DNA of 64,000 nucleotides from Hormiphora californensis (Eukaryota; Animalia; Ctenophora). Position 1 is the stretch's first letter; each line of letters begins with the position of its first letter. Made by a program: the position numbers and the translations under genes. Positions 5,601 through 55,090 of this stretch are shown one piece after another. The notes below the pieces were generated by a model. That model saw only the letters and a list, made by a program, of their open reading frames with translations, did not search any database and was not told the origin of the DNA. The stretch spans positions 1,798,001 through 1,862,000 of the forward strand of contig CM035354.1 of assembly GCA_020137815.1 (NCBI GenBank), read 5' to 3'.

Positions 5601-5708
5601 ACCTGATACACAATGTCAGGAGTTAATTTGTCATATATCAAATATCAATAGTGAATAGCGTGTAAACTTGTATTTTTTTAGAAAAGCCAAAAAAACGGAA
5701 CCATTTAA

Positions 5709-7100: not shown

Positions 7101-7943
7101 TTAAATCATGTGATTAAAGAAATTAAACCCGATGATTCAAGTTATTGGTAGTCATTTTATGTTTCTCTTTTATTTCCCGTTAATTTTGGGAGAATCAATA
7201 ACAAATTAAGGAACATTTTTAGGAACAGTAATTTTGCGAAAAATCGTTTAAATTGCCTATGAGCTTACCAAGAGTTTACGAAATTGTGTACAAACTCTCC
7301 CTGCACATCCCCTGATGCCTAAACAACTGGGAAAATGCAAGGAAACGCATAAGCATAAAAATGCCTTGAAGCACATGTAATTTTCAAAAAGTAGAAACAT
7401 CAAACAGCTTACATCACAACATTCGCTATCCCTTGGGCCTTGACCCTTTGACCTTTCAGTCCCCAGGCTGTCAGCAGCTGATACTGAGGGGCTAGGGAGG
7501 CCGGAGGGGGGTGTTTCTAGGAAGGAGCATACGCCACAAGGGTCTACAGAGTACTGAATACCGTAAATTTCAAGATAGATAGATACCAGGGATCATTCAT
7601 CGACCACAGACCGACATCTGGTCGAACTTTTTGCGACTTTTCAGTTTTTCGGATCGAAAATTTTACTGTTTCAAAATAAAATTTTTGAGCGAACACGCAG
7701 CGCATTTTCATTTTTATGCCAAAGTTAGATGTAGCGCGCAGACAACTTCAACAAAGCGTTGCACATCAAAAAAATGTTTCAAACTTTTTGTCAAACTTTT
7801 TTGCTGCTTTTTGTGTTTTCTTGTCCTTTTTTGTCCTTTGTCGTTCTTTCTATCTTTTTTCTCCGCTTCATCCTTTCTTTCGATTAAAAAAGAGCCAAAA
7901 ATCTTCCACTCATTATTTTTATCAATTTCTTACAGGAATCGAT

Positions 7944-31308: not shown

Positions 31309-31346
31309 GCTGGGTAAAAGGTGAGTTGGGAGGAAACGCAGTTTAA

Positions 31347-31798
31347 AGGTTGACAAGATATCTAAAACTTTTCGTATATCGTCTTATTTTGATTTATCAT
31401 TAATTTACAGCATTTTTTCAGAATTTTTTGTCGGCTAGAAAAAAATTCGAAATAGGGGGTATACCGATATTGTCAGCACTGGTTTTACTGGGCACACTCA
31501 CTGCGTCTCGCAAATTGAAATTCACGTTTCCGGTTCCTCAAAAAAGATAGCTACTTGATATTGGTTGCGTTGGATTGGTCTCAATAAGACCTTTCCAATG
31601 CTACCAAAACGGTTTCTGTATCTCATCAGGAACCGGAGATATTACGGTGCCAATTTTTAAATTGCGCCTCTCGTTTATCAGTAGACCCCCTATTTTGCAC
31701 ATATTTCTAGCCGACAAAAAATTCTGAAAAAATGCTGAAAATCAATGATAAATCAAAATAAGACGATATACGAAAAGTTTTAGGTATCTTGTCAACCT
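31347..31798. mobile_element. TTAA-TSD MITE, Kolobok-like
   Basis: TTAA|AGGTTGACAAGATA ... TATCTTGTCAACCT|TTAA; ~95-bp TIRs. Confidence 0.9.
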
Positions 31799-32045
31799 TT
31801 AAGACTCTTTGGAAGCGATTAATTAAGTGATTAATAAGCTTCAAACATATATTTTCGACAATAAATTAGTCACAAAACGATCCAAAAATAAACACGTGTT
31901 ATTGTGCACATTGCGCACACATGTGTACAGACTCGGCTGTGTGCCAAATACTTCAACCTAAATAACCTTGTGTCAATGTCCTATCGAAAAGATCAGAGTT
32001 GTCATAACTAGCAAAAATTCCAAAATCATAATTGAACCTAAACTT

Positions 32046-35843: not shown

Positions 35844-36702
35844 CTACAAGCGGCCGTGTGTGGAGGGGCTACCGGTCATTCGGCTACCGGTCATTCGGTT
35901 GAATGCAAACACAGTTACCACACACAAGAGAAACACTGAGAGGTGTACTACCAGAGCTCCACTCTGTGCTGAACTGTTTGGATCCGTTAAAATGGGCCCA
36001 ACTACAGATTCACCGAGCTGTTCACATGACAGCGTTACCTGTCCAACTCCACTGACCCCTCCAACGCTGATAACCCTCTCAATAATGTCATGACGGGTTG
36101 AGAAGGTAAAGTTTCGGCTCTCAAACTCCAGGCCTTCAGCGGGGGCAGTAACTATCAGGGACACCTGGGGTTGTCCCCTGGCTGACGCACCGCAGGGCAA
36201 ACGGGTAAATCCGGACTCCGATAATACTATTAGGAATATAGCCTGAGAGTCGAGGACTGTTATGGACACAGTTGTTCGAGGGTTCATTGTAATGGAAATC
36301 GCAGGTGTAAACCTCACCTGGATTACCCTTAGGAACGGTTACATTGGCCACAAAGAACACGTTATCCACTGATCCACCCCAGTCCAACAACAATTCCTCT
36401 TTGTTACCATAGTAACCATCAAGATCTCGTTCTACCTCCTCCTGGGTAGAAAACACCGAGTGGTAGCTAAGGTAAAAGCCGACTGTGTAATCAATGTCCT
36501 TGATGATTTTGACAGAACTCCCGTCCCCTAAATCCCTATAAAGTGTAAATCCTCGGGAACGTTGTCGAGCACACCGGAAGTTTACTGAGCCATCGACTGC
36601 GGAAATGCGGGCATATGGAGGGGCAATGGCATCGGTTTTTAGGTCAGGGTATTCTTTTGCAAGTGCAAGGGAAGTCAGTTGGAGGATTATTAAGGGAATC
36701 AT
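35844..36702 (-). CDS. Secreted or membrane-anchored protein with two putative Ig-like domains; 1-bp frameshift near 36187
   Basis: Signal peptide; VNFRC...GEVYTC; removing one base gives LRC-SARGQPQVSL...LSC; hydrophobic C-terminus. Confidence 0.55.
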
Positions 36703-36936
36703 GTCATACCTCCCTGCGAAAAGAAAGGGCTATTATTGAGCTCAGATATATGGAAGTAAACAACATTTACTATCATAAGTTAAAACAATATCAAAGATCA
36801 TTATACAAATTCATTGTCTCTTAAAAACATCTCAAAAATGTTAACATAAATGTTGTCTGCGAATATAGATTGCCGGTTGTAGTTGGAACATGACACAGTC
36901 ATAAACCTCTCAGAAAAACTGAAACACTAATTCACA

Positions 36937-38411
36937 CTAAATAGGTTGCCAGTCTGCTGGTGAACTAAAAACACCGCTCACCATCTCCTCTGTAACATCC
37001 TCCAAAGTTGCAGGGTTCCACCGCGGATTATTGTCCTTGTCCACCAACAACGCCCTGACACCCTCCTGAAACTCACCCAAGGCAAAGGTCGGATCCGCAA
37101 TCTGGACCTCCATCCTGAGACACTCCGTGAAGTCGAGGGAGCGAGAGAGGTGTTGAGTTCGGTGGGCAATACAAAGGGCAATCGGTGACATGGTTGAGAG
37201 TGTCTTGTCAGTTGCTGCAGCGAATTCAGTGGCGCTAGCCTGTAATCGGGAGCGGATCTCCAGAACCGATGGTGCGGAGAAACACTTTGAAATCTCCAGC
37301 AGATTGGACTGGAATGTCAGGTCTGGGATATCATCAGGCTGAAAAGACTCCAAACATTCTACTACATTGTGATTCATATGTGGAAGCTACACAACAGACA
37401 AGTCAGCAATGATCTCCAGATACAGTTTAAAGACAAAGGTCGGACAGGGATCAAGGCAGTCGTACCACCAATGACCAAGACAGGATCGAGTGCAAACCAA
37501 ACACTCTATGACGAGTCCTTTGCGGTCATAGGACCAAAGCTATGGAACAGTATCCCAGCAGAGCTCAGCCGCATTGACAAGTTCGAGAGTTTCAAACGGG
37601 CCCTTACGAAGCACTTCAAGGAAATCCCGGATGAACCTCCTGTTCAAGGTTACAGTAGGAGGAACAACAACTCAGTGCTGGACTGGCTGAGAGATAAACC
37701 TGAAGGGTGTTCGCACGAGGCGATGACCCTGTTGCAGCAGAGGATCTGATCTTCTACAGCTTCGAACAACCTAAAGTGACTAAAGTGAGTGAGCTCACCC
37801 TCACTTCCACATGAAAGTATACCCTCCCGGAGTTCGGAAATTCGGTCCGTGAAGTGCGTCACAAAATCCAAATGAAGTGCATCAGCACCCCTGGTTCTGT
37901 TGCCAGTTAGGGCGAGATACATACCAACATCACCGAGCCTGGATAGGAAATACGTGGCACCCGCATCTGGGTAAAATCCAATCTTGGTTTCAGGCATGGC
38001 AAACATAGATCGAGGAGTGCAGACTCTGTATCGGCTGTTACAACACAACCCCATTCCTCCACCCATCACAATACCATCACCAAGGGATATAATCGGTTTA
38101 AGGAACATTTTCAATCGGTGGTGCATCTGATTTTCACGGGCCATGTTTCCTAAATTCACTATATCTCCACCAGCACAGAAAGCCTTACCACCCGCTCCCT
38201 CCATAAGGATAATGTCCACACTTTCATCCTTTTCAATTTCTCCCAACCTCGCTATGATTCTCTCCACCATTTCATGATTGTAAGAGTTCAGGGCTTTCGG
38301 CCGGTTCAGCAATATTGTAGCTACCCGGCCGTGGTGAGCGAATTCTGCCACATGCGATAGAGATCGTGAAGGAGTGGATACGAGACGACGTAATTGTCGA
38401 GTGAGTAACAT
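36937..38411 (-). pseudogene. HIBCH: HIBCH paralogue disrupted by a LINE fragment
   Basis: Near-identical to 38878-39930 but split at 37365-37791. Confidence 0.8.
37365..37791 (+). mobile_element. 5'-truncated CR1/L2-type LINE 3' end
   Basis: Absent from the paralogous copy; encodes an ORF2-type C-terminus SFAVIGPKLWNSIP..SFKRAL..IPDEPP; repeated CTAAAGTGA tail. Confidence 0.85.
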
Positions 38412-38816
38412 AACGCAGCTCTGAAAAAGAGTCAGGCGAATAAAATTGTGCTAGAATTAACATAAAAGGACACATTTCCCACGGTCATAATAGCTCCACC
38501 CCATGGTAAGATGGAGACACCAAATGTGGAGGTTATGAAGATCATTTCGAAATCAATGGGAGGATAAGTATGAACATCATGTCACATTGCTTCCTCCTGC
38601 AGAAAGAAAGGATTATCATTGTGCTCAGATTTGGATAAAATAAACATTTCACTATCATACGTTCATTTAATGTTAAAACAATATCAAAGCTCATTATACA
38701 AATTCATTCTCTCTTAAAAACATATCAAAACGTTAGATAAATGTTGTCTGCGAATATAGATTGCCGGTTGTAGTTGGAACATGACACAGTCATAAACCTC
38801 TAAGAAGAACTGGAGA

Positions 38817-38880
38817 ACACTAATTCACACTATAATTCACACTATAATTCACACTATAATTCACACTATAATTCACACTA
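38817..38880. repeat. 12-bp tandem repeat x5 at the HIBCH stop codon
   Basis: taattcacacta repeated; single copy in the paralogue. Confidence 0.85.
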
Positions 38881-39930
38881 AATAGGTTGCCAGTCTGCTG
38901 GTGCACTAAAAACACCGCTCACCATCTCCTCTGTAACCTCCTCCAAAGTTGCAGGGTTCCACCTTGGATTATTGTCCTTGTCCACCAACAACGCCCTGAC
39001 ACCCTCCTGAAACTCTCCCAAGGCAAAGGTCGGATCCGCAATCTGGACCTCCATCCTGAGACACTCCGTAAAGTCGAGGGAGCGAGAGAGGTGTTGAGTT
39101 CGGTGGGCTATACAAAGGGCAATCGGTGACATGGTTGATACAGTCTTGTCAGTTGCTGCAGCGAATTCAGTGTCGCTAGCCTGTAATCGGGAGCGGATCT
39201 CCAGAACCGATGGTGCAGAGAAACACTTTGAAATCTCCAGCAGATTGGACTGGAATGTCAGCTTCGGGATATCATCATCATCAGGCTGAAAAGACTCCAA
39301 ACATTCCACTAGCTCACCCTCACTTCCACATGCAAGTATACCCTCCCTGAGTTGGGGAATTCGGTCCGTGAAGTGCGTCACAAAATCCAAGTGAAGGGCA
39401 TCAGCACCCCTGGTTCTGTTGCCAGTCAGGGCGAGGTACATACCAACATCACCAAGCCTGGATAGGAAATACGTGGCACCCGCATCTGGGTAAAATCCAA
39501 TCTTGGTTTCAGGCATGGCAAACATAGATCGAGGAGTGCCGACTCTGTATCGGCTGTTACAACACAACCCCATTCCTCCACCCATCACAATACCATCACA
39601 AAGGGAGACAATCGGTTTGGGGAAGGTTTTCACTCGGTGGTGCATCTGATTTTCACGGGCCATGTTTCCTAAATTCACTATATCTCCACCAGCACAGAAA
39701 GCCTTACCACCCGCTCCCTCCATAAGGACAATGTCCACACTTTCATCCTTTTCAATTTCTTCCAACCTCGCTATGACTCTCTCCACCATTTCATGATTGT
39801 AAGAGTTCAGGGCTTTAGGCCGGTTCAGCAATATTGTAGCTACCCGGCCGTGCTGAGAGAATTCTGCCACATGCGATAGAGATCGTGAAGGAGTGGATAC
39901 GAGACGACGAAATTGTCGCGTGAGTAACAT
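38878..39930 (-). CDS. HIBCH: 3-hydroxyisobutyryl-CoA hydrolase paralogue (350 aa)
   Basis: LNRPKALN, AFCAGGDI, GIVMGGG, AMPETKIGFYPDAG, EGVRALLVDKDNNPRW. Confidence 0.92.
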   Translation of the reverse strand: MLLTRQFRRLVSTPSRSLSHVAEFSQHGRVATILLNRPKALNSYNHEMVERVIARLEEIEKDESVDIVLMEGAGGKAFCAGGDIVNLGNMARENQMHHRVKTFPKPIVSLCDGIVMGGGMGLCCNSRYRVGTPRSMFAMPETKIGFYPDAGATYFLSRLGDVGMYLALTGNRTRGADALHLDFVTHFTDRIPQLREGILACGSEGELVECLESFQPDDDDIPKLTFQSNLLEISKCFSAPSVLEIRSRLQASDTEFAAATDKTVSTMSPIALCIAHRTQHLSRSLDFTECLRMEVQIADPTFALGEFQEGVRALLVDKDNNPRWNPATLEEVTEEMVSGVFSAPADWQPI

Positions 39931-40173
39931 AACGCAGCTCTGAAAAAGAGGAAAGCGAATGATATTATGCTAGCATTATACACGTCTTGTTGAACACGTG
40001 TTTTACAAAACTATTAGTAACTTTAGAATGTAAAAACAATAGTTAACCTCGTATATTCATACAGACAACATCAAGAAAAATATATCGCACCTAACTCAAG
40101 AAATAAATTATGATTCCGAACAAAACCTTAAAAAACATCACTCTTCCCAAAATTCCAGTTCACTGGAAAGTGT

Positions 40174-41277
40174 TTATAGTGGTTTCCATTGCTTGCCAGA
40201 AGACTCGAAGTATCGATCTACCATCTCCTGTGTTACTTCCTCCACAGTGCCGGGTTTCCAGGCCGGACTATTGTCTTTGTCAACAAGCAGCGCACGGACA
40301 CCCTCTGTAAACTCTCCACTTCGATAAATTTCCGAAGCTGCAACGAACTCCCGTGCAAAGCACTCCTCGTAAGAGAAATTACCCCCCTCGGAGAGTAATT
40401 TGTGTGTGACAACGAGTGACCGAGGGGACATTCGCCGGAGAGTTTTCAGCAACTTTACAGCAAACTCTGATCCGTCTTCTTCTAATCGGGAGAAGATTTC
40501 AAGAACAGACGGAGCGGAGAAACAGTGCTTGATAAGATCAACCTGGGGTCCGAGGGTAAATGGGCCAGGAATTGGACTCTCGTGGCTCGCTAAAACCTCT
40601 TCAATGGTGTCCTCATCAGATGCCATGATAGCAGATTTTAGAGCAGGCAATTTCTCCATCTCGGTGTAATGGGTGGCTATCCCGAGGTGTTTTAGATCCG
40701 CTCCCTTAATCCGATGTCCAGTTAATCCGAGGAACATTCCATAGGGTTGCTCCAATCTTGACAAAAAATAAGATCCGCCAACATCGGGGAAATAACCAAT
40801 AGCGGTTTCTGGCATTGCATAAAGAGTACGCTCCGTTGCCACCCTGTATTTTCCGTGTAGAGACAAACCGACACCACCGCCCATTGTAATACCATGGATA
40901 AGTGAGACGTATGGTTTAGAGTAGGTCCCAATCATATAATTCATCTGGAATTCATCGTGGAAAAATGTCAGGGCAGCAGAGTCGTCTGCCGCCGATGTCG
41001 TTATTGATACAACGTCGCCACCAGCACAGAAAGATTTCGCGCCCGATCCCTCTACGCACACAACGCCGACACTCGGATCAGCATGCCAGGTCATCAGGTT
41101 GTCCCTTATTTGGTGAACCATATTTAAGTTAATAGCATTTAGAGCTTTTGGACGGTCCAGGGTAATCAATCCGACCTTTCCTTCGCGTGTAAAGTGGACC
41201 TCCTTTGCTGCAGTTGCCATACTTCGCATCGACAGGATGACTGGTTTGGCGAGTTTCGATGTAATTCGACAAGCCAT
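40174..41277 (-). CDS. HIBCH: 3-hydroxyisobutyryl-CoA hydrolase, canonical copy with a mitochondrial-type presequence
   Basis: LDRPKALNA, FFHDEF, GITMGGGVGLS, AMPETAIGYFPDVG; first ATG at 41277. Confidence 0.93.
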   Translation of the reverse strand: MACRITSKLAKPVILSMRSMATAAKEVHFTREGKVGLITLDRPKALNAINLNMVHQIRDNLMTWHADPSVGVVCVEGSGAKSFCAGGDVVSITTSAADDSAALTFFHDEFQMNYMIGTYSKPYVSLIHGITMGGGVGLSLHGKYRVATERTLYAMPETAIGYFPDVGGSYFLSRLEQPYGMFLGLTGHRIKGADLKHLGIATHYTEMEKLPALKSAIMASDEDTIEEVLASHESPIPGPFTLGPQVDLIKHCFSAPSVLEIFSRLEEDGSEFAVKLLKTLRRMSPRSLVVTHKLLSEGGNFSYEECFAREFVAASEIYRSGEFTEGVRALLVDKDNSPAWKPGTVEEVTQEMVDRYFESSGKQWKPL

Positions 41278-41717
41278 ACGATTCTGACAAGCAGATCCCT
41301 GAATTATGTGAATCAATAGTTAACATTAAAGCCTTAGAATAGCGAGAAAGGTGATAAAAAGCATCAGAAAACGGAAAACTTGACGGGTTTTTAAAAATGA
41401 ATTCGATTTTTCGCCTTTTTTGAGCTGCGCTTGCTTGGTTCGAAACGCGCGCACGCGTACCTGGGACCTGCAGCGCATAACATTTTTTGTAAACCTGAGA
41501 TTTCGGTTCCAAGATTTTAAAAATACCCTTTTGGACTTTTTCAACTTTTGGCGTTTTGTTGCTATTTGTCTCTCTGGCCATCGATAGGCCAGAGAGGGTT
41601 CCAGACGTTAAGATCAACAAGATCTCTTCTTTATTTTCTTTTTCTAGTTGAGCACACTCAACGAAACGTCAAAGTTCTTCCCGGAAATTTCCGCGGAAAG
41701 GACTTATTATTCATACA

Positions 41718-41756
41718 TCAAACTTTTCAACACTACTTTAAACAAATTAATTTGAG
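41718..41756 (+). other. Spliced-leader-like sequence at the 5' end of a retroposon, no GT donor
   Basis: TCAAACTTTTCAACACTACTTTAAACAAATTAATTTGAG; identical to the reverse complement of 54948-54986; matches my recollection of the Pleurobrachia SL (needs verification). Confidence 0.75.
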
Positions 41757-41890
41757 ATATGTCCTCAGGATGTTGAGACCGCCCGTAGGGGCAGGCAGAA
41801 GTTATGACGGAGAAACTCAATACCTCTGATGCAGATGCTGATCCACTGGAATGCTGGGGTTTGTCGATGATGGAAAAACTTCGTTGTGCA

Positions 41891-42425
41891 ACCGCGGAAG
41901 AAGCAACTCTTGATCGCAAGTTGAATTTGGTTATATTTGGGCTGCCAGAAACTACGGCAAGGGCTACTGAGCATGAAGTTCAGGATATCTTTGGAGAGCT
42001 CAATGAAAAACCAGTCATATCTTCTACAAAGCGTATTGGCGAAAAGACTGATAACCGACCGAGACCAGTAATTGTTACACTTGAAAGGAGGGAAACTTTG
42101 TTACAACTTCTAAGAAAAGCAAAACAGCTCCGAGATTCAGAGAAATTCTCCTCGGTGTTTCTCTCCCCCGACCTAACACCGGAGGAGCAGCGAGAGCGGA
42201 AAACTCTCGTTGATACAGTGAAAGGACTGAGGCGAGACAATCCGAATGGACGATACTGGGTTAGCAGGGGGGTAATTAAATGTGGCTGACCTGCTACATG
42301 TAATTTGTACTCTAAAGAGACTTCAAAAGGAACCTTATGACTATCAATTTAGCCCACAAAAAGGGGCAGTATATGTTGTATTTTATCCAATGTATACATT
42401 TTAGATTTAATAATAATAATAATAA
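41891..42425 (+). mobile_element. 5'-truncated retrocopy of element A inserted into element A
   Basis: Matches 43009-~43546 except one substitution seen and tail length; TSD TCGTTGTGCA at 41881-41890 and 42426-42435. Confidence 0.9.
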
Positions 42426-43553
42426 TCGTTGTGCAGTAGAGGACGTTTTTTATATCAAGAACGGGCTCAAACAACCAAGTGAACAACAGGTTGATGGAGT
42501 ATTGTCCAAGTTATTGGATTCTAGTTTGTATGATGATCCTGAGCAGTATATTGAGGACGCACTGCCGAAAGACTCCGAAATGAGAAAGTATAATGTTGAT
42601 CGTTTCATGGCTTTCACCGAGAACCTCTCTCGTCATATTTTTCGGATAGTGAGAGAAATAGGACCAGTTATGAAGGAGAAACGTCTGTATGCAACTGCCC
42701 GAATGAAAGAACGCCTGGAACTAGAGGAGTGTAATCAGAAGCTCAAGGAGGTACAAGAAGAGCTTGGCACTTTTAAGGAAGAAATCGACAAACATCGGGT
42801 ATCAAGGATTGAACTGCAAGAGAAGCTGATTGAAGCACAAAATACTTTGATTGAAGTACAAGGTCGAAAACTTAGTTCAGTGTCAGAGTCTGTTCAGAAG
42901 CAATTGCAGGGCTACTCCAAGGTGCTTGTACAGAATTGCTCTGCAGCTATTACACCATCCCGCCTCCAAGCAGCATTGAAGAAAGCGACTGTACCCCATC
43001 CAAGTACAACCGCGGAAGAAGCAACTCTTGATCGCAAGTTGAATTTGGTTATATTTGGGCTGCCAGAAACTACGGCAAGGGCTACTGAGCATGAAGTTCA
43101 GGATATCTTTGGAGAGCTCAATGAAAAACCAGTCATATCTTCTACAAAGCGTATTGGCGAAAAGACTGATAACCGACCGAGACCAGTAATTGTTACACTT
43201 GAAAGGAGGGAAACTTTGTTACAACTTCTAAGAAAAGCAAAACAGCTCCGAGATTCAGAGAAATTCTCCTCGGTGTTTCTCTCCCCCGACCTAACACCGG
43301 AGGAGCAGCGAGAGCGGAAAACTCTCGTTGATACAGTGAAAGGACTGAGGCGAGACAATCCGAATGGACGATACTGGGTTAGCAGGGGGGTAATTAAATG
43401 TGGCTGACCTGCTACATGTAATTTGTACTCTAAAGAGACTTCAAAAGGAACCTTATGACTATCAGTTTAGCCCACAAAAAGGGGCAGTATATGTTGTATT
43501 TTATCCAATGTATACATTTTAGATTTAATAATAATAATAATAATAATCATACA

Positions 43554-46500
43554 CCCAACAAGTTGAGAATCCTCAACAATCACTCACCACCCCGATCACA
43601 TGATCACGCGATCCAAAGCCAAGGCACGTCTCTCACCAGTAGCCCTTCGGCCGTCATCATCCCTACACAGACCGTTCCACCCACAAGCTCACCTCAGATC
43701 GTTTGTCGTATCCCCTGACGACTCTCTATCCTCCGACAGCTCAGGATCGGCTTCAGACGGTGACCATGATTATGCTACTCCCAACACCAGCATCACAAGG
43801 GGAACACCCATTTCAAACTCAACGCCCATAAGCAGATTGATAAATGAGTCGAGGTGGTTTACAGAAGAGAAGTGTGGGCAATGCTATGAAACACTGCCGT
43901 CTTATGAGAATGCCAAATGTGAAGCATGTCATGAACCGTTTCACCAGACCTGTATGACACCGGTTAATCAATCTGAACAAATGGTTCATACACCTGTAGT
44001 GTGGTATTGTACTGCCTGTTTCAACCTAAACAGATTAGTTTGGAAGACTACAGAGCCTTGTAAAGCTAACTGTTGGGGACCGTTGAATGGAGAAGAGCTC
44101 ATCGAGGCTTTCTCTAACATCTCTATGATCAGTCAGGGATGGTCAACCAACCTGTTCAAAGTTCCCTTCGGTCAAGTGGGCCGTTCTTTCATTGATGAAC
44201 TTACCAGACTGGCAGGTCTCTTCAGTGATAGGGAAGACACCAGAGGATGGTCCTTATCTGCTTTGGTTATAGCCCCACTGCTGCTACTCCAGAAGCCGGC
44301 CAGGAAGTCGAAGAATCGGGAGCATGCTCAAGTTCTCAAACGACGCCTAAAACTGTGGCACGATGGAGACTTTGAGGCGTTGGTTCGGGAAGCCAAGGTT
44401 ATCCAGAAACCATTGAAGCACAATGTCCCATCTTCGGAACTCTGCACTAAGAGGTTTGTGGACCTAACCAGAGAGGGGAGAGTTACAGAGGCAACTGCAT
44501 GGTTGAACCCCGAGAGGCATACAACTGGAGTTAAGGACTGCAACGACGAGTCCGTATTGTCTGATCTGCTAGAGAAACACCCAAAGGGTCAGCCTGCCAA
44601 CAGTACCCTGGCGAGACAGGGGCCAACAGATGCAGTATTGGAAGTCACCTTTGACGGTATGAATGGGCAAACGATTTTCTCATGCGGCAAAAGCCTCAAA
44701 GGTAGTGGAGGACCAAGTGGACTAGATGCAACAGGAATACACCGAATCCTTTGCTCCAGGAAATTCAAGAAATCACCCCCAGCACTGTGCACAGCGCTTG
44801 CAAAAGCAGCTCGGACCCTAGCCACAGAGCAGGTTGACTTGAAAGCTTTAGACATTTTCTGTGCAAGTCGCCTCATGCCCCTTGCCAAGCCTGGAGGTGG
44901 TACGCGTCCTATTGGAATAGGAGAGTGTTTCAGACGTGTTATGACCAAGGCCATTATTCGCACCATCAAGTCGGACATCAAGAGTGCGGCTGGAAAGGTT
45001 CAACTAGCTGCAGGTCAGTTAGGAGGTGTGGAGGCAGCGATCCATGCACTGAGTGAGAAGTTTGAATCTGAGGAATGTGAAGGTGTACTGTTGTTGGACG
45101 CCCAGAACGCGTTTAACAATCTCAACCGGAAAATGGCCCTGAAGAACACTACCTTCTACTGTCCGGACCTCTCCACATTTCTGACCAACATCTACGGGAA
45201 GCCAAGGGCACTTTTTGTTGGTGAAAAGCTACTGTGGAGCTCTGAAGGAGCCACACAGGGAGATCCAGCTGCAATGGACTTCTACTCAATTGGCATACTA
45301 AGACTGATCGAGCTTGCGGAGACGCCAGATACAACACAAGTGTGGTATGCAGATGATGCAAACAATGCAGGGAAGCTCACGGGCTTGTTAGAGTGGTTTG
45401 ACAAGGTGACAACCTTTGGCCCTAGTTTCGGATATTTTGTAAACCCTGCAAAGTGCCATCTTATCGTGAAACCTGAACTGCTCGACCATGCAAAGCGGCT
45501 GTTTGGAGATACTGGGGTTCAAATCACTGCTGAAGGTGCTCGTCACCTAGGTGCTTCCATAGGATCTGAGACCTTCAAGCAAACATTTGTTTCTGCTGCA
45601 GTTTCCAAATGGTGCATTGAGCTGGAAAATCTTGTGGCTATTGCCAAAGCCCATCCTCATTTGGCGTACAGCAACTTTGTGAGAAGCTTCCGATTCAAGT
45701 GGGCCTTTCTCCAGCGAACAGTTCCAGACATCAGTGATCTGTTTGATCCGCTTGAACACACCATCCGTTCACAGTTGATTCCATGTCTGGTGGGCCGTCA
45801 AGTGTCCGACCTAGAACGGGAGATACTGGCACTCCCCTCTGGGAAAGGTGGAATGGGTATTGAGAACCCCGTCAAAACCTCTGACAGATCATACAGCAAC
45901 TCCCGAGCATTGACGAAGCCCCTTGTTGATTTGATACTATGCCGTAACGAAGAAGAAATAGAAATGGCTCTAGTGGAGAAGAATGCAAGAGAGGCAAGGA
46001 ACAAGATAGCAAAGGAGAATGAGGACCACCACTCAGACACTCTCAAAGAGTTACTCACTAGAATCACATGCCCAAAGCTAGTGAGATGTCTAGAGCTCGC
46101 TGGAGAGGCCGGAGCATCTGTATGGCTCACGGCAACACCCTACCCTCACCTGGGCTTCGAACTGAATCAATTGGAATTCGTCGACTCAGTGGCACTGCGA
46201 TACGGGTTTGAGGTCAAAGATTTGGGCGCGACATGCGTATGTGGAAAGCCAAACAATGCGGACCATACCTTGTCCTGTTCAACCGGGGGCTATTCCATCC
46301 TCCGTCACGACAACATCAGGGACCTAATGGCGGAGATATGCTCGTATGCGGGCCTCAAAGGTGTGGAAACAGAGAAGCTACTTCTCCCTTGTCCGGACGG
46401 CATACACTTTCACCCTTCGGCAAACACAGCCCCTGATGCAAGGATGGATGTGGTCGCACTTGACATGTGGCGAAAAATGCAGCTGGCTCATATGGATGTG

Positions 46501-47110
46501 CGAATTTTCCATGCCAATTCGCCCTCCTATATCGACACGCCCCTCGACCAACTCTACCGAAGAAACGAGGCTAGCAAGAAGCAGTCGTACGGAAAGCGTG
46601 TAAGAGAAGTTGAAGGGGGTGCCTTCTCTCCGCTGGTTATGAATACAGCAGGCGGGATAGCCAACGAGTTCCAAAAGGTGCTGAAGACTCTCTCACACCG
46701 AGTCTCCACAAGAACCGGAGAACCGTACAATGAAGTTATGGCGCACCTGAGGACGAGGCTACGATTCTCCCTCCTGAGATCATGCCTTATTGCTTTAAGA
46801 GGAAATCGGAGGAAGATCGCTATCACTAGTCTAACAAATACTGAACTGGTGACCTGAGGAAGAGAGGAATGAGAAGAACTTGAGGATCCGAAGATAAATT
46901 GATCCGAGGATGAATTGATTTATTGTTTTGTTCTTTCTTCTTTCTCGATTTTTTTTCTCTGCTGCGGTTCACACACTTTAAAAATTTTCCTCCGTTTTTA
47001 AATTTTTGTCTCTGGTGCAGGTGTCTCCTGAGTCCTGTTGTCTCCGGTCTGCTCAGTGCTCAGTGCTCATTGCTCAGTCGACAGTCCTGAAGCATCTTTA
47101 TCTTTTTACA
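43554..47110 (+). mobile_element. RLE-type (CRE-like) retrotransposon body; 5' UTR probably continues left of 41717; 3' end not defined
   Basis: Intact 1085-aa ORF with a T-rich 3' region; no TSD found. Confidence 0.7.
43600..46857 (+). CDS. CRE-clade-like non-LTR retrotransposon polyprotein (PHD finger, RT, zinc knuckle, restriction-like endonuclease)
   Basis: C4HC3 PHD; RPIGIGE, GGVEAAIH, LDAQNAFN, EGATQGDP, WYADD; CVCG..H..C, RHDNIRD, ARMDV..DVRI, EASKKQSY, FSPLVMNTAGG. Confidence 0.93.
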   Translation: MITRSKAKARLSPVALRPSSSLHRPFHPQAHLRSFVVSPDDSLSSDSSGSASDGDHDYATPNTSITRGTPISNSTPISRLINESRWFTEEKCGQCYETLPSYENAKCEACHEPFHQTCMTPVNQSEQMVHTPVVWYCTACFNLNRLVWKTTEPCKANCWGPLNGEELIEAFSNISMISQGWSTNLFKVPFGQVGRSFIDELTRLAGLFSDREDTRGWSLSALVIAPLLLLQKPARKSKNREHAQVLKRRLKLWHDGDFEALVREAKVIQKPLKHNVPSSELCTKRFVDLTREGRVTEATAWLNPERHTTGVKDCNDESVLSDLLEKHPKGQPANSTLARQGPTDAVLEVTFDGMNGQTIFSCGKSLKGSGGPSGLDATGIHRILCSRKFKKSPPALCTALAKAARTLATEQVDLKALDIFCASRLMPLAKPGGGTRPIGIGECFRRVMTKAIIRTIKSDIKSAAGKVQLAAGQLGGVEAAIHALSEKFESEECEGVLLLDAQNAFNNLNRKMALKNTTFYCPDLSTFLTNIYGKPRALFVGEKLLWSSEGATQGDPAAMDFYSIGILRLIELAETPDTTQVWYADDANNAGKLTGLLEWFDKVTTFGPSFGYFVNPAKCHLIVKPELLDHAKRLFGDTGVQITAEGARHLGASIGSETFKQTFVSAAVSKWCIELENLVAIAKAHPHLAYSNFVRSFRFKWAFLQRTVPDISDLFDPLEHTIRSQLIPCLVGRQVSDLEREILALPSGKGGMGIENPVKTSDRSYSNSRALTKPLVDLILCRNEEEIEMALVEKNAREARNKIAKENEDHHSDTLKELLTRITCPKLVRCLELAGEAGASVWLTATPYPHLGFELNQLEFVDSVALRYGFEVKDLGATCVCGKPNNADHTLSCSTGGYSILRHDNIRDLMAEICSYAGLKGVETEKLLLPCPDGIHFHPSANTAPDARMDVVALDMWRKMQLAHMDVRIFHANSPSYIDTPLDQLYRRNEASKKQSYGKRVREVEGGAFSPLVMNTAGGIANEFQKVLKTLSHRVSTRTGEPYNEVMAHLRTRLRFSLLRSCLIALRGNRRKIAITSLTNTELVT

Positions 47111-47456
47111 ATTTACAGAAATATCATCTCACCAGGGACGGCTCAGCAAGTCCCTGGGTAGCTGGGGCCATGGGCAAATGCTCCGTTCAGTGAACTGTGA
47201 AACCCCCATGAGCGGGGTGATCCGTCCTAGGACGCAGGCTCTGCGGGGTCAGGGGTGTAGGGGCCAACCAAGGTTCATGACCCCGTGAGCTGAGCTCACG
47301 ACTAGAGTTGTGGCCTTGCCCATGGGCCATGGTGACTCGAGAGCTCTGTTGACAATTACATTTCAAAATCGAAATTCGATCATTAGTCTAGAAAGAGATG
47401 CCACTTAGATTAAATGCATTACAAATTCCTATTCCTAACTCATTTTCTCAACAGTA

Positions 47457-47774
47457 ATGGTGTTGCTAGACAACGACGGTTTCCTCTTGGCCCTGACAAA
47501 AATGTTCCAAAACAACCGTTCAGCTGGGAGTGTAATCCTCACACTCAAGAAATACGATGGCAGAACGACACGGAAAGCACCCGCCACACCGGCTGATAAT
47601 CTTTGCTTACTCCGAGCTACGGATAGCAAGAAAAAGCTCAGTACAATTGTGTCCAACAAAGAGGTTACAAAGTTCCAGATGTCCTACGCAACCCTACTCC
47701 GGGGCAACATGGATGCGCTTAAGAAACACGACAAGAGTAAAGAGAGAAAGGAACGGAAACGAAAAGACATGTAG
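47457..47774 (+). CDS. SRP14: Signal recognition particle 14 kDa protein
   Basis: MVLLDNDGFL..LTKMFQ..GSVILTLKKYDGR..CLLRATD.KKKLSTIV. Confidence 0.96.
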   Translation: MVLLDNDGFLLALTKMFQNNRSAGSVILTLKKYDGRTTRKAPATPADNLCLLRATDSKKKLSTIVSNKEVTKFQMSYATLLRGNMDALKKHDKSKERKERKRKDM

Positions 47775-48152
47775 GGAGGGATTTGTGTGAATTATGTTGT
47801 TGTGTCGTTACGTGCTGCTGGAAGCACAAGGCGGTATATTTATTTGACTTTATCGGAATATTATGTTCAGTTCAACAATTTTATCCTCTCGTGTATGTAC
47901 TGTGTGTTTCTTTTGCCGAGCCGAACACACTCCTTGCCACTGACAGCCCCACAATTTAACTCCCCTACTTCTCTCACATAAAGATCACCTGAAACCCATT
48001 GATAAACCCATCTTTTAACTTGTTATGTTCTATGTGTAAACCCTCCCTTTACATTTCGCCCGCGGGGCGTGCGAAAAACAGTCTAACTTGGCAACTTTTA
48101 ACAAGAATTACAAGATTTATAACCCCCTACTTCTCTCCCAGATCAGATTGAA

Positions 48153-48902
<750 letters not shown>

Positions 48903-49272
48903 TGATATGGGGCAGAGAAAAGAGAAGGGGAGAAAAACAAAGAACTTCCGAGTAGGTTGAAATGAGGGATTGAGGAGTGATGTATTTCTTTATTATATGG
49001 ATGTTTATGATTTTTATTGTGTGAAAATATCCGGCACTTGAGGGAAGATATGATATATGAGTGTGTTATACGCTGTGTGTATTGTATTGTGTTTTGTTTC
49101 TTATGTTTTACACACCTTGTAATTATTACACAATGATACTACCCCCCCCCCCCCCTGCACCTATAAAAGTCTGGCAATCTTTCGGTGTTGATATCTTTGG
49201 TAGAAATTGGTTTCATATATATCAAGGGTTTGGATTGTTGAATGTTTTTTATGAATTGTGCTGGTGCAGGTA

Positions 49273-49908
49273 CTGGGTGTTCATTTTGGATCTTTACAAG
49301 CGTTGGCCTTCACCCAGAAAAAAGTTGACAAGATCAGGTCATGAAACTTCATACTTGGACTATTCTATACCCTCATTCAAGGTTCCTGGGGGTTTTGGAG
49401 CTCTAGCACCCCGGGAAGTGTATTTTTGGCATCAAAACTACCAGAAGGAATTTTTGCTGGTGCTGAGACTTTGCTAAAATGTTTTTTGGGTATTTTCTAT
49501 GTCAATCCTAAAGTTTCATAGAGATTGGATGTGTTTTTCGGACTCAAAATTTCGATAAAAGTGGCTGGAAAGGCTCGAAAACAGCTCAAAAACTGCTAAA
49601 ATTGAGTCTTTCCAGCCACTTTTATCGAAATTTTGAGTCCGAAAAACACATCCAATCTCTATGAAACTTTAGGATTGACATAGAAAATACCCAAAAAACA
49701 TTTTAGCAAAGTCTCAAAACCAGCAAAAAATCCCTTCTGGTAGTTTTGATGCCAAAAACACACTTCCCGGGGTCCTAAAGCTCCAAAACCCCCAGGAACC
49801 TTGAATGAGGGTATATAATAGTCCAAGTATGAAGTTTCATGACCTAATCTTGTCAACTTTCTTCTGGGTGAAGCCCAACGCTTGTAAAGATCCAAAATGA
49901 ACACCCTG
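49273..49908. mobile_element. Palindromic Tc1/mariner-like MITE with TA TSD
   Basis: TA|CTGGGTGTTCATTTTGG ... CCAAAATGAACACCCTG|TA; ~300-bp inverted arms. Confidence 0.88.
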
Positions 49909-50266
49909 TAGATAATTAAATGAGTTGTATGAACAAACCAACTACAAAGTGATTTCCCTGTTATACCTGAATTTGGATTGAAGCTTAGAAATTCACAGGA
50001 ACAAAGAGAGGTGTGAGTGCATTGGCTGTCAAGCCATTTCCTGACAGATGATCCATACAAGATGGCACACCGCTCGTCGTTATCGTTTGGTTCTCGGAGG
50101 GATCAATGATCTAAGAAAACTAGAGGACTAGACGGTTGGAACATTTCATGCATTTTGGATGGTTTCACTAATGTCCCCTCCCTTATCTGTCCCATTATAT
50201 CTACCCATATCTTCCCTAATATCCCCTGTTCCCTAATTATTAATATCCCCTGTTATCTACAGCACC

Positions 50267-52762
50267 ATGATCCTACTAGAGGAAAACAACCTGGTTATAT
50301 TTGAGACGCTGAAGGCCAAGTTTACAGCTGCCAAACCCGAGAGTGTCGCTGTGGTGGCCATTGATTTTGATGGAGTTAAATACAACATCACGTAAGACGC
50401 AATTATTTATTGATTTTACTATTACAGTCGGACCCCGATTTAGTGGCCCCCCATTTAGTGGCACCCCGATTTAGTGGCAGGATTTTTTTCCCCGTTATAG
50501 GAAATTAACATTATTTGAACCCGATATAGTGGCACCCCGATTTAGTGGCAGGATTTTTTCCCCCGAGGATGCCACTAAATCGGGGTCCGACTGTATATAG
50601 AGAAGTTAACCCGTCCGGAATGTTATGACCACCTAACCCTCGTCTGCAAGAGCCCTCCCCCTATGATTCCCTAACCCTCCCCATCCCAGGAACCCCCTCC
50701 CCCTCCCAGGAATCCCTCCCCCTATGATTCCCTAACCATCCCCCTCCCAGGAACCCCCTCCCCTATGCACTATGATTCCCTAACCCTCCCCCTCCCAGGA
50801 GCCCCCCCCCCCCCATGATTCCCTAACCCTCCCCCTCCCAGGAGCCCCCTCCCCTATGATTCCCTAACCCTCCCCTCCCAGGAACCCCCCCCTATGATTC
50901 CCTAACCCTCCCCTCCCAGGAACCCCCCCCCCTATGATTCCCTAACCCTCCTCTGCAAGAGCTCCCCCTATGACTCCCTAACCCTCCACATCCCAGGAAT
51001 CCTGGTCAGGACAAGGGTGTGATAACTCTTAGTGCGTGTATGAGAATCTACTCTGACTTGGTAGCGCATGGTGTTGTTGAGCTTCTGAAGAGGGAATATG
51101 GGGATTACCTTGTCGACCCTGAGGTGACATATAGCTCTCTTTTTTTAGTTTCTTCTCTACGTCCATCTCTTATTCTTCACAAATCACACAATAACATGTT
51201 TATTGCTCCTTGCACTTCGCACCCCCACTCTCGTCTAATTCCCCTTCCCTTCTTCGACTTCTTCTAATCCCCCTCCCTCTCTCAGGAAGGGTATGACGTC
51301 ACGCTAAGATACGAGCTAGCCTCCCTTCCTGAAGACAAGGAAGCTGTCGCCAAGAAAGCATCCCTCCTCAAACGAAACTGTTTTGCTGCTGTTTTTGAGA
51401 AGTATTTCAAGATGCAGGAAGAAGAGTCACCTAGCAGTGAGATGGCTACTGTTCATTACCATGAGGAGGAAGCGATGTATATTGCAGCTCAGTCTGACAG
51501 GGTAACCATTATCTTCTCAACTGTTTTCAAGGATCCTGATGATGTCGTTATTGGCAAGGTGAGAATGTTGTGGAGGGTGACAATGTTAGGTGTCATGTTA
51601 GGTATTAGAATGTTAGGTGTCATGCAAGGTAAAAATGTTGTGGAGGGTGAGAATGTAAGGTGTTAGAATGCAAGGTGTCATGTTAGGTGTTAGAATGCAA
51701 GGTGAGAATGGAGTTATAGAGGATTTGTTGTCTTACTTCATGATACAAAAATGGGAAGTTGAGTCCAACTAAAATCCTAATGAGTTGTCACTCACAGTAT
51801 AACAATGGGAGCTCAACTAACAACAACGGACAACCTTCTCTATAAATATAATAGTTCTTGTGTTTATTGGACAAGTTAGACTCGCTGGATACATTAATAT
51901 CCAGCGAGTCTAACTATATCCAGCGAGTCTGTTATCGATCATGAGACTCAGGAATAGTCAAGCAATACATTACTTCTATAAATATAATAAATAAAATAAC
52001 CTCTATCCTCGTTTCTCCAGGTGTTCCTACAAGAGTTTAAGGATGCCAGAAAGGCTCACCAACAGGCGCCCCAGGTTCTATTCTCGTATGGCGAGGCACC
52101 CAGGGAGCTGGCCGGGGTTAAAGGCGTCCTTTCTGGAGACAATGTTGGGTGAGTAAGGGAGATGTTCAGGAAGGGGTGTGTGGGGGACATAGCGAGGGTG
52201 GGCTGTCAAAATGTTACATAACAGACAGTGGAGAGAGAATCCAGTGATTTTGCAATGGACGAATGACGTCATTCATCGAGTAATTTTTCCGTTCACTAAT
52301 TTAACAACTCCATCTTCAGATTTGTTACATTTGTCCTATTCCCACGACACACAAACCCGGCCAATAGGGAGAATACGATCAACTTGATTCACCAGTTCCG
52401 TACCTACCTGCACTACCACATCAAGTGTAGCAAGGCATATCTCCATCAGAGAATGAGGAGCAAGACATCCACCTTCCTCAAGGTACGTGCCACGTGGGAT
52501 AGTGAGGGAGTGGGGAGTAGGGGAGTAGGGGAGTGCAAGTGAGGAGTAGGGGAGTGGGATAGTTGGAGCAAGACCTTCCTCATGGTACGTGCCACGTGGG
52601 ATAGTGATTAGTGGGGAGTCCGGGGGAGTGGGTGCCGGTTACTGGTTAGTGGGGTCGGTTCTGGGAAATTATAATTTAATCTTAACTATCTCTCAGGTGC
52701 TGAACCGAGCAAAACCCGAAGCGATGACGGATAAAGACAAGAAATTCGGAAAGAGGGGATAA
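50267..52762 (+). CDS. ARPC2: Arp2/3 complex subunit 2 (p34-Arc); exons approx. 50267-50391, 50997-51123, 51286-51558, 52021-52148, 52320-52482, 52697-52762
   Basis: [15 protein letters not shown]; [15 protein letters not shown]; [16 protein letters not shown]; [15 protein letters not shown]; FLK|VLNRAKP. Confidence 0.95.
50425..50593. mobile_element. Tc1/mariner (pogo-like) MITE with TA TSD in ARPC2 intron 1
   Basis: TA|CAGTCGGACCCCGATTTAGTGGC ... GCCACTAAATCGGGGTCCGACTG|TA. Confidence 0.9.
50655..50996. repeat. ~38-40 bp minisatellite of 3' splice-site units
   Basis: ccctatgattccctaaccctcccctcccagga, about 8 copies. Confidence 0.9.
51877..51930. repeat. Short palindromic repeat in an ARPC2 intron
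   Basis: ttagactcgctggata..tatccagcgagtctaa plus a third tatccagcgagtct. Confidence 0.7.
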
Positions 52763-53706
52763 ACAATTTAGAACATGGAAATCGTCTCTGTCCATCCTCT
52801 CAATTTTGAGAGTGAGAGAGAGGCGCCTGGGTTGAAGAAGCACGAATTTGTGACTAGCATAATGTAAAAACTATTACACTACTCTCTATACCACTACGTT
52901 ACCACCGTGTATCGATATTATTCGCCGTTTTTTTCTTGTGTTGTTGTGTACCATGTATTTTTTGTAAAATTAATCCGTTTTTAAGTTGAAAAAGGACCAG
53001 AAGTGAGCCATAATGAATCACTTCAATCCTTTGAAACGAAACACCTGTGTTTCTATTTTGTGTGTATGGAATCCCTATCAAATCCCCGGTGTGACTGCTC
53101 CACTGGAGAGTGTAAAATGATGTAACGTGACACGATCTTGGCCCGGTCACACTTTTCTCGGTTTCCATATCAACTTGCTGTGACGCGCGGGTACACTATT
53201 TGGAGATAACTCCGCGCAGCTTCTGCTTCCTAAAATTCGTACGCGCAAATGAAGTAACGCGCGTAATTTAGTAAAATCAATTGCGCGGCGTAGGGTTTTG
53301 TAAATTTGACTCGAATATTTTAGAAATCAAAATTTAAAAACGCGTCACTTTTCCAAAAAAAACGAACGAGGGCTTAACTTCAAACAGCAATCCGACAATA
53401 CCGGGTTCCATGATGGATACGAGGGTACTCTCGACACTTCGGTGTTGTACCACTTTGCAGGTTCACTCTGTGACCGATCGTGGTGTGCGTTTATTATCTG
53501 AGACCCCGGTGTCGGATTGCTGTTTCTTTCAACGAGGGCTTTGGAGTTGAACGTTTGCCAAGCTTTGGAGACGAGATTTCGTCCTCGCAGTCAAACGATC
53601 AGATACCTTCAATATTTAGCGTTGCGAAAGTTCATGTTGTTGAAAAGGTGGACGGGGTGATAAATTGGTGTGTGGGGGGACACGTCCGGGGCGTGGGAGG
53701 TCATAC

Positions 53707-54894
53707 GAAGTTTCAAACTTTCATCAACTACAACGTAAAACTATTTATTGAGTGATGGGAACGAAAGATAACGAGGGCGATAACCCTACGAATGAACGAT
53801 TGATAAAAGCAGTGAACGACCATGTTATGGAAATTATGAGAATGGACTACGAGGATACCTCGGAAGAGATAACTTTTGAACCGCAGCAAGTAACGAATAA
53901 CTACAACTTTATCAAACAATTCCCCGAGTCAAAACTTGGTTCACCGAGTGACGATATATGCTCTCACTTTAGACGTATTCTCAAGACCTTATCTAAAGAG
54001 GAAATCATTGACACTACATGTAAAACTTTTTTGTCCGGTGTGAAACTTCTGAAATGTGCAATGCATAGCCTTGATGAGGTTAGTAGTACGAGGAAACTAG
54101 AGGAGGAGTTTCGTAAGTGCAAAGAAGAACTTGACCGCCACCGTGTTACGGTGATTGAGCTGCAGCAGACCGTCATCAACAATCAACAGCAGCAACTCAG
54201 TTCAATGACAAACTCAGTACAGAAGGTGAAAGCTTACTCTACTGTTCTTGCTCAAAACTGTGCTGCAGTCTCTCCGGTGGTGAGAAAATATTCTCAAGAA
54301 CCAACTCACGCACCATTGTCCGAGAGGGATAAAAATCTTGTAATATTCGGTATACCAGAAACAACTGACCGCCTGACTAAGAACAGTGTCGATGGTTTGT
54401 TTGCCGAGCTGAATGAAAAACCGAAAGTAAATTCGATCAAACGTATCGGCGAGAGAAACGAGAAGGGCCCTCGACCTCTATTGGTTTCTTTGGAAAAACG
54501 AGCAACACTTATGGCGCTGCTGAAAAAGTCACGTCAGCTGAAGAACTCGGAACACTTCTCAGCTGTTTACTTTTCACCAGACCTAACTCCAGTCCAAATA
54601 AAGGAGCGTAAAGCCCTTATCACCACCTTGAAAAAGCTCCGCTTAGAGGACCCGGGCGGAAAATATTATATCAAAAACAATATAATCCAAGTAGGATAGG
54701 ACTATTATTCCCACTACGTGATCTATCATAATCTTGTTGCAAAGCTAGCCGCTTTTGGAGCGAGGGCTGTTGAGGATGAAAGAGGATGTGTTGATGAATC
54801 TGACTCCCAGCAGCAGAACTTGTGCTGAGCCGTATATCGGACAGTTAAAAAGCGGACTATAAATTTACATTTTGTATTTGTATTTGTATTTGTA
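53707..54894 (+). mobile_element. ORF1-only LINE-like retroposon B with variant SL-like 5' end and (TTTGTA)4 tail
   Basis: SL-like 53707-53752 ends in TTGAG 2 nt before the ATG; ORF homologous to element A; tail at 54871-54894; TSD uncertain (possibly AAGT). Confidence 0.75.
53755..54699 (+). CDS. LINE ORF1-like protein (coiled coil plus RRM/CTD-like region)
   Basis: ERDKNLVIFGIPE, KRIGE..GPRPLLV, VYFSPDLT; paralogous to the ORF of element A. Confidence 0.85.
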   Translation: MGTKDNEGDNPTNERLIKAVNDHVMEIMRMDYEDTSEEITFEPQQVTNNYNFIKQFPESKLGSPSDDICSHFRRILKTLSKEEIIDTTCKTFLSGVKLLKCAMHSLDEVSSTRKLEEEFRKCKEELDRHRVTVIELQQTVINNQQQQLSSMTNSVQKVKAYSTVLAQNCAAVSPVVRKYSQEPTHAPLSERDKNLVIFGIPETTDRLTKNSVDGLFAELNEKPKVNSIKRIGERNEKGPRPLLVSLEKRATLMALLKKSRQLKNSEHFSAVYFSPDLTPVQIKERKALITTLKKLRLEDPGGKYYIKNNIIQVG

Positions 54895-54914
54895 AGTCAA
54901 AACACGGTGGTTGG

Positions 54915-54947
54915 TTGGAACGTTTCGGGGTTGTGCCCCTTCTTCAG
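54915..54947 (-). ncRNA. Hammerhead ribozyme core directly downstream of an SL-like sequence
   Basis: CUGAAGA-a-gggg(cacaa)cccc-GAAA-cg-UU-ccaa; palindromic AACGUU; stem I imperfect. Confidence 0.5.
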
Positions 54948-54988
54948 CTCAAATTAATTTGTTTAAAGTAGTGTTGAAAAGTTTGAAA
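54948..54988 (-). other. Spliced-leader-like sequence, no GT donor
   Basis: TTTCAAACTTTTCAACACTACTTTAAACAAATTAATTTGAG followed by CT. Confidence 0.75.
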
Positions 54989-55090
54989 GATCAATATTAC
55001 TTCCTTCAGTCTAAATTATCCCTGAGCTTTAATTCTTGAGTATATTTCCACAGATTCGTGGCCCCAAACTAGTCTGTAGGCGGGTATTTT

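Follow-up and report, generated by a model that had tools for sequence, protein, structure and literature searches.

The joining of a host spliced leader (SL) to retroelements is already in print for flatworms and Hydra, and its joining to retrogenes for dinoflagellates, as far as the accessible text of the respective papers goes. Flatworm SL exons joined to retroelements were described at six loci (PMC5832876, accessible part) and as 597 discarded loci (PMC12582326, accessible part), and the SL of Hydra was found on about 30% of the transposable element Iso-Seq reads (PMC12220107, accessible part). As in the ctenophore elements analyzed in this work, the leader is fused there to LINE or LTR sequences, and the authors read this as integrated trans-spliced element RNA; however, in the text available these cases are side remarks, with no element anatomy, target-site duplications (TSDs), ORF1-only families or conserved junction, and they concern other phyla and other leaders. 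The SL-relict retrogenes of dinoflagellates (PMC5585692, accessible part) are likewise genomic copies of SL-capped RNA and raise the same question of re-expression, but they are host genes, often with stacked leaders, whereas the ctenophore copies are mobile elements with a single leader, and no stack was seen.

Three further systems share particular traits with the unit described below (unit A). A link between non-LTR elements and the SL is known for NeSL, SLACS and CRE, the SL-exon-targeting RLE elements (PMC4640811, available text), which target SL genes, whereas the leader of unit A is located inside the duplication and its flanks are unrelated to the SL-RNA gene repeat. SINEU (PMC4494074, available text) also carries a spliceosomal small-RNA head, and its transcription is unexplained, with flank-driven transcription being proposed; SINEU elements are, however, short and non-coding and obtained U1/U2 heads by template switch, while the head of unit A is an exon joined at the splice donor. 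Finally, HAL1, the half-L1 of mammals (PMC5753468, available text), is, like unit A, non-autonomous, TSD-flanked and limited to an ORF1p of the L1-type fold. Unlike HAL1, unit A ends with an (AAT)n tail instead of poly(A) and starts with the host SL. Neither SL-headed LINEs nor ORF1-only elements of ctenophores were found in the literature searched, which left out most subscription papers and Repbase.

The stretch of DNA analyzed here (the window) comprises 64,000 nt of the Hormiphora californensis contig CM035354.1 (positions 1,798,001 to 1,862,000, forward strand). It is compact animal DNA with intron-poor housekeeping genes, in which the following features were distinguished:

41711-41717, plus strand: left outer TSD, TCATACA, found by the flank repeat search
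41718-41756, plus strand: SL, the last 39 of the published 44 nt, with no donor behind it, found by SL comparison
41757-41803, plus strand: 5′ UTR of 47 nt, with two upstream ATGs (41759 and 41770) and a GCCC..GGGCAG motif at 41781
41804-41890, plus strand: 5′ piece of ORF1, 29 codons, whose final 10 nt are the left inner duplication (41881-41890)
41891-42425, plus strand: nested, 5′-truncated copy of the unit A element, which includes a 3′ UTR and ends in an (AAT)n tail at 42409-42425
42426-42435, plus strand: right inner duplication, TCGTTGTGCA
42436-43407, plus strand: 3′ piece of ORF1, 323 codons and stop, with predicted coiled coil, RRM and C-terminal domain (CTD) like LINE-1 ORF1p
43408-43526, plus strand: 3′ UTR of unit A, with a GCCC..GGGCAG motif at 43470
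43527-43546, plus strand: (AAT)n tail of unit A
43547-43553, plus strand: right outer TSD, TCATACA
43600-46857, plus strand: single-ORF non-LTR retrotransposon, intact (1085 aa), with PHD-like finger and reverse transcriptase (RT); a separate element, not ORF2 of unit A
53709-54894, plus strand: second ORF1-only unit (unit B), with variant leader (53709-53752) and (TTTGTA)4 tail
54948-54988, minus strand: second exact copy of the SL (41 nt), behind which stand CT and a non-coding sequence abutted by unit B

The first-pass annotation had described unit A as an RT-less retroposon bracketed by a 7-bp repeat and built of a leader, a 47-nt UTR, a single ORF and an (AAT)n tail, and most of this description was confirmed. 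TCATACA is the sole direct repeat of at least 5 nt between the flanks searched, with its T common to the tail and six informative bases (chance about 3e-4 per register). The 39-mer begins directly after the left TCATACA, at 41718; the UTR and the tail (43527-43546) are both present, and there is no RT within the unit. As had been noticed, the 39-mer recurs exactly once more in the window (54948-54986, minus strand), and end-pieces of the leader of 12-30 nt were not found elsewhere in it.

Comparison with the published ctenophore SLs, proposed in that annotation, revealed that the 39-mer is the pleurobrachiid SL, i.e., the Hormiphora SL minus its first 5 nt, as given in the accessible part of PMC8527503, in which the leader sequence is also reported on 56% of the H. 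californensis Iso-Seq reads. Moreover, the 39-mer caps mRNA-like metagenome contigs and is found in an SL-RNA gene with a GTAAG donor (locus L010). Judged by these matches, it is the host spliced leader. The leader of unit A is, nevertheless, not an SL-RNA gene, as had been stated, since AT follows it at 41757, whereas the real gene has GTAAG and alternates with 5S rRNA. Flanks originating from an SL repeat, as expected for an SL-targeted insertion, were not found either: the leader lies inside the TSD, and the window matches L010 only over the leader.

The part of the description which had to be corrected is the single ORF, as the ORF1 of unit A is split after codon 29 by a nested, 5′-truncated copy of the same element. 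This copy differs from the 3′ end of unit A (43009-43544; the match extends over 41889-42426 versus 43007-43544) by one mismatch in 536 nt, is devoid of the leader, shows a 2-nt microhomology (CA) at its 5′ joint, and is flanked by its own 10-bp duplication, TCGTTGTGCA (41881-41890 and 42426-42435; seven informative nt, chance about 4e-5 per register). The two ORF1 pieces (29 + 323 codons) add up to 352, which is the length of the uninterrupted database proteins P0001 and P0033, matching 28 of the 29 residues of the 5′ piece and 317-319 of the 323 residues of the 3′ piece; being uninterrupted, these proteins stand in for the empty inner site. On this sequence comparison, a truncated copy jumped into a full-length one. 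The nested copy provides independent evidence that the AAT end is the mobile end, and as the insertion splits ORF1, unit A itself has likely ceased to supply protein. Marks of target-primed reverse transcription present in unit A thus comprise the outer and inner duplications, two AAT tails and one 5′-truncated copy. A tandem duplication as the source of the 541-nt repeat was ruled out by the repeat's own flanking duplication and by the relatives running through the site.

Several side observations concern the surroundings of the unit. A pyrimidine tract with AG is located upstream of it (41623-41647), and TCATAC is present just before the heads of both unit A (41712-41716) and unit B (53701-53706), which could be target preference or chance; the right flank of unit B contains only an imperfect match to it. 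Both units start 260-370 nt downstream of CGCG clusters (41446-41454 and 53184-53341), of which there are five in the window, two of them preceding ORF1-only units, and both are in the sense of the next plus-strand gene. This is a hint, post hoc and with n=2, that ORF1-only units inserted into transcribed leader regions. The GCCC-N3-8-GGGCAG motif stands shortly before the ATG in unit A (41781) and in the metagenome loci L008 (L008:120) and L012, and occurs again at 42352 and in the 3′ UTR of unit A (43470), with one other match only in the window.

The Pfam scan of ORF1 gave nothing above the cut-off. The predicted structure of the protein (mean pLDDT 72.8, pTM 0.31) shows a helix of 118 residues together with an RRM-like and a small C-terminal domain, and in the Foldseek search against PDB ranks 1-11 were all human LINE-1 ORF1p (best E 2.7e-6, low TM-scores), followed by generic RRMs. 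The assignment of a LINE-ORF1-like protein made from the letters alone therefore agrees with the predicted coiled coil-RRM-CTD architecture and its top matches. According to this model, ORF1 is of the L1-type fold, which does not place its parent in the L1 clade.

The search with the 3′ piece of the protein yielded 31 matches, 28 of them at 44-98% identity, and a profile built from 21 sequences retrieved 8786 representatives at E ≤0.001 and 225 at 1e-30. The three best Atlas clusters of the family are mostly Ctenophora, where the phylum is given, and one family member is recorded from Pleurobrachia bachei. Without the nested copy, unit A has 1284 nt; the uninterrupted 352-aa relatives sit on contigs of about 1.2 kb, and the longest contigs of the 28 closest representatives (three weaker matches left out, one match having no length) range from 1041 to 1960 nt, contig size being an indirect measure of element length. 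For the 69 cluster members listed (8 of 10 clusters looked up), the longest contigs have 512-2548 nt (median 1376), with none above 3 kb; of the 15 closest relatives of the neighboring RT, by contrast, 12 are on contigs exceeding this length. The search for relatives with longer proteins, in which a blank result counts as weak evidence, gave one match, a P. bachei gene model fusing ORF1 to the host GINS/PSF3 and not to RT. Unit A is thus, as had been proposed, an ORF1-only, TSD-flanked retroposon with no RT inside, whose family has members of unit size. The family is represented at this locus by two insertions (outer and nested), and elsewhere by multi-member protein clusters.

The RT ORF at 43600-46857, which starts 46 nt past the right outer duplication and, like unit B, had been overlooked in the first-pass annotation, lies between a HIBCH-like gene (minus strand) and SRP14 (47457-47774, plus strand). 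Its C-terminal motifs are of the RLE type and presumably CRE-like, an assignment based on motifs and not on a tree. Its two closest relatives are 81% identical and located on contigs of 3.66-3.68 kb, and as regards a duplication around it, only scattered 8-9-mers were found, none of them at plausible ends. The possibility that unit A is the ORF1 of this downstream RT was rejected, because the AAT end moved alone in the nested copy; the duplication closing unit A and the 3.66-3.68-kb contigs of the RT relatives also speak against it. The Rfam search over 40000-57000 gave nothing at the gathering score, and no hammerhead. Between the RT ORF and SRP14 there is a GC-rich segment (47130-47335) with a raw folding energy of about -104 kcal/mol over 251 nt and no Rfam match. 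The window further contains three tandem HIBCH-like genes of the enoyl-CoA hydratase family (36671-41319, minus strand), two of them recent duplicates and one apparently broken, as well as long, MITE- or foldback-like inverted repeats (5703-7106, 31343-31802, 49271-49910, 56740-57084, and 57664-58141).

Scanning metagenome contigs for the exact leader yielded 14 matches, distributed over 13 loci, of which one is an SL-RNA/5S array, four are mRNA-like and eight are retroelement-like, including six two-ORF LINEs. In the array (L010), two true SL-RNA genes (leader followed by GTAAG) alternate with 5S rRNA genes with a period of 778 nt (263-381, 697-735, 1041-1159, and 1475-1513), an alternation not stated in the accessible portions of the ctenophore literature searched. 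In the mRNA-like loci, i.e., L001 (cathepsin), L005 (proteasome subunit), L006 and L011 (both with no Pfam match), the leader is within 11 nt of the contig start and the ORF 1-26 nt behind it. Five of the two-ORF elements (L003, L004, L007, L009, and L013) encode ORF1 and then an APE endonuclease ORF, while L002 is their sister by ORF1 (59-61%), with ORF2 cut short; contigs of the two-ORF elements contain no RT domain and no 3′ end. The remaining two are L012, with an unclassified 410-aa ORF running into repeats, and L008, an SL-headed, ORF1-only relative of the unit A family (HMM E 1e-18). The flank upstream of L008 is AT-rich, and the element shows one frameshift and, 90 nt beyond its stop, a short tail of tandem repeats. 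The eight loci may come from several species and, as they were found by an exact leader search, diverged heads could not appear among them. L002, L003, L008, and L009 are genomic copies, because their 40-354 nt of upstream flank are unlike the SL gene; the other four element-like loci have 3-19 nt of upstream flank.

In all ten element-like exact copies (two in the window and eight loci), the leader ends where the SL-RNA donor starts (GAG/GTAAG in L010), none of them is followed by SL-RNA intron sequence, and 0-4 leader bases are kept upstream of the 39-mer. In L002, L003, L004, L007, and L013, whose ORF1s are 43-61% identical, the leader is identical at 39 of 39 positions and joined at the same or an adjacent junction, while the 39 nt behind it match at 22-35 of 39 positions (shuffled mean 20, maximum 27) and start with TGTTCC in three of the five. 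No AG was found in the first 20 nt behind the leader in these five LINEs, which indicates that the junction has not crept downstream, and no stacked leaders were found upstream of any head with enough flank. At least three types of ORF1, among which no homology could be detected, carry SL heads. The ORF1s of L009, L012, and L013 showed no homology with the family profile (probabilities below 1%), the five ORF1s of the L002 type carry CCHC knuckles instead, and no two-ORF parent of unit A was found among the six SL-headed LINEs. The first-pass annotation had presented the SL head as a trait of a non-autonomous family; unit A does carry it, but this was too narrow, since two-ORF LINEs share the same head, so that SL heads mark ctenophore LINEs generally and are no special trick of half-elements. 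Viral contigs gave no leader matches, and none of 30 candidate stretches was confirmed as ORF1; a relaxed form of the leader pattern matched 14 times in 596 billion bases of prokaryote genomes, which was taken as chance.

The second ORF1-only unit of the window, unit B, has an intact ORF of 314 aa (53755-54699), with 46% identity to unit A over 220 aa and 88% to P0012/P0060; no exact duplication was found around it. Its head is identical to the SL at 36 of 42 positions, with 5 gap bases; when 3876 segments of the window were scored, it ranked directly behind the two exact copies, and it lies 2 nt before the ORF. Of 2000 simulations at 15% substitution, 5 left a 945-nt ORF uninterrupted. The top rank and the 2-nt distance from an intact ORF argue that this head is neither chance nor in-place decay; it may be another host SL. 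The variant was not found in the searchable papers (two unrelated matches). Unit B abuts the second exact leader copy, in which (minus strand, 54895-54988) the leader is directly followed by CTGAAGA, a GGGG/CCCC stem and GAAAC, an arrangement with no Rfam match that we take to resemble the minimal hammerhead motif known from Penelope-like repeats. Upstream of this leader there is an 8-mer with a second occurrence near 53611, possibly a duplication around a unit interrupted by B.

Taken together, unit A is an ORF1-only, LINE-derived, SL-headed and self-nested retroposon, and we consider it fairly probable that a partner LINE provided the enzyme which reverse-transcribed it from trans-spliced RNA. 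An element copy would be transcribed together with flanking host DNA, and the spliceosome would join to its RNA a new SL supplied by the SL-RNA genes. The simplest acceptor would be the AG ending the old genomic leader, the use of which would restore an identical 5′ end each time. The ORF1p encoded by the element would coat its RNA and the partner ORF2p would prime at the (AAT)n end (target-primed reverse transcription), whereupon synthesis would either run up to the cap, with a loss of 0-5 leader bases (outer copy), or stop early (inner copy). The joint at the last base of the leader and the 0-4 extra bases kept, as from cDNA ending shortly before the cap, fit the reverse transcription of capped, trans-spliced RNA and not template switching. 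Because the leader is exact across unrelated families while the bases following it drift, these sequences favor renewal of the leader by trans-splicing in the LINE lineages, and as the junction is stable in five diverged LINEs, they suggest that SL-headed copies themselves act as sources. Consensus does not favor re-splicing at the old leader: it ends TTTGAG after an A/T-rich stretch, GAG being a rare 3′ splice site, while the host acceptors of the window, as judged by eye, have CAG after pyrimidines.

It is this poor acceptor that lends some weight to a reading we hold to be improbable, according to which a single capture of the leader, from a trans-spliced RNA, furnished a head that has since been permanent, with the leader or UTR serving as an internal promoter and no new trans-splicing. 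The same idea was argued for the SL relics of dinoflagellates (PMC5585692, accessible part), and it agrees with the single, unstacked leaders upstream of heads with enough flank and with the GCCC..GGGCAG motif recurring in the UTR of unit A, L008, and L012. It would require, however, that all 39 bases be strongly selected in many families unrelated to each other, in which the next 39 drift to 22-35 matches. The diverged head of unit B on an intact ORF, hardly explained by decay in place (5/2000 simulations), fits a permanent head as well, but loses this force if it is another host SL; Derelle reportedly described several SLs per ctenophore species in 2010. The weak GAG acceptor, the exact-match ascertainment and the variant head of unit B keep this reading alive.

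We give little credence to the view that SL-capped mRNA comes from a small number of source loci which possess a promoter and an outron (either a master copy or an ORF1 gene domesticated in the manner of L1TD1), all SL-headed copies being dead ends. The leader junction fits it, as does the model of the first-pass annotation, and transcription of such loci could account for the unit-sized contigs with uninterrupted ORFs; nonetheless, the tails are tandem repeats and not poly(A), there are many subfamilies at 60-98% identity and two insertions at one spot, and the two-ORF LINE lineages sharing the head must propagate via new copies. An outron-keeping master alone cannot sustain long-lived lineages whose new full-length copies start with the SL. 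Least probable, and by far, is that template switching or RNA ligation attached the leader at the stage of DNA synthesis, in the manner of U6-L1 chimeras or the SINEU heads; other elements do gain small-RNA heads in this way (PMC4494074, available text), but here 10 of 10 joints are at the last base of the SL exon and not at random truncation points, behind them stand a complete 5′ UTR and ORF1 (in one case a non-coding unit), and the truncated inner copy has no leader.

Unit A is a real SL-headed half-LINE with a nested self-insertion, and one case of a wider pattern in these ctenophores. The Hormiphora genome paper counted 718 genomic leader copies, and 491 in Mnemiopsis, treated in its accessible text as leader loci without naming what follows them (PMC8527503). 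As 8 of the 13 leader loci and both exact copies of the window are element-like, many of the 718 are likely heads of retroelements, and SL-headed elements likely explain many of the leader copies scattered through ctenophore genomes. This affects SL-gene counts and gene models, e.g., the Pleurobrachia bachei model fusing ORF1 to PSF3, and makes the leader an exact tag for full-length, young insertions. Moreover, with their intact and diversified ORF1, the half-elements lend themselves to testing why ORF1p is kept in elements of this kind. More tentatively, and with doubt prevailing, ctenophore LINEs and half-LINEs may have given up promoters altogether, with the AG of an integrated leader accepting a fresh SL from read-through transcripts and the spliceosome excising the element from host RNA much as the R2 ribozyme does; such copies would then make up much of the 718 Hormiphora leaders. 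If the head is renewed by trans-splicing, this would account for the expression of a LINE that lacks a promoter and sits at random sites, and would tie retrotransposon replication to the spliceosome in an animal.
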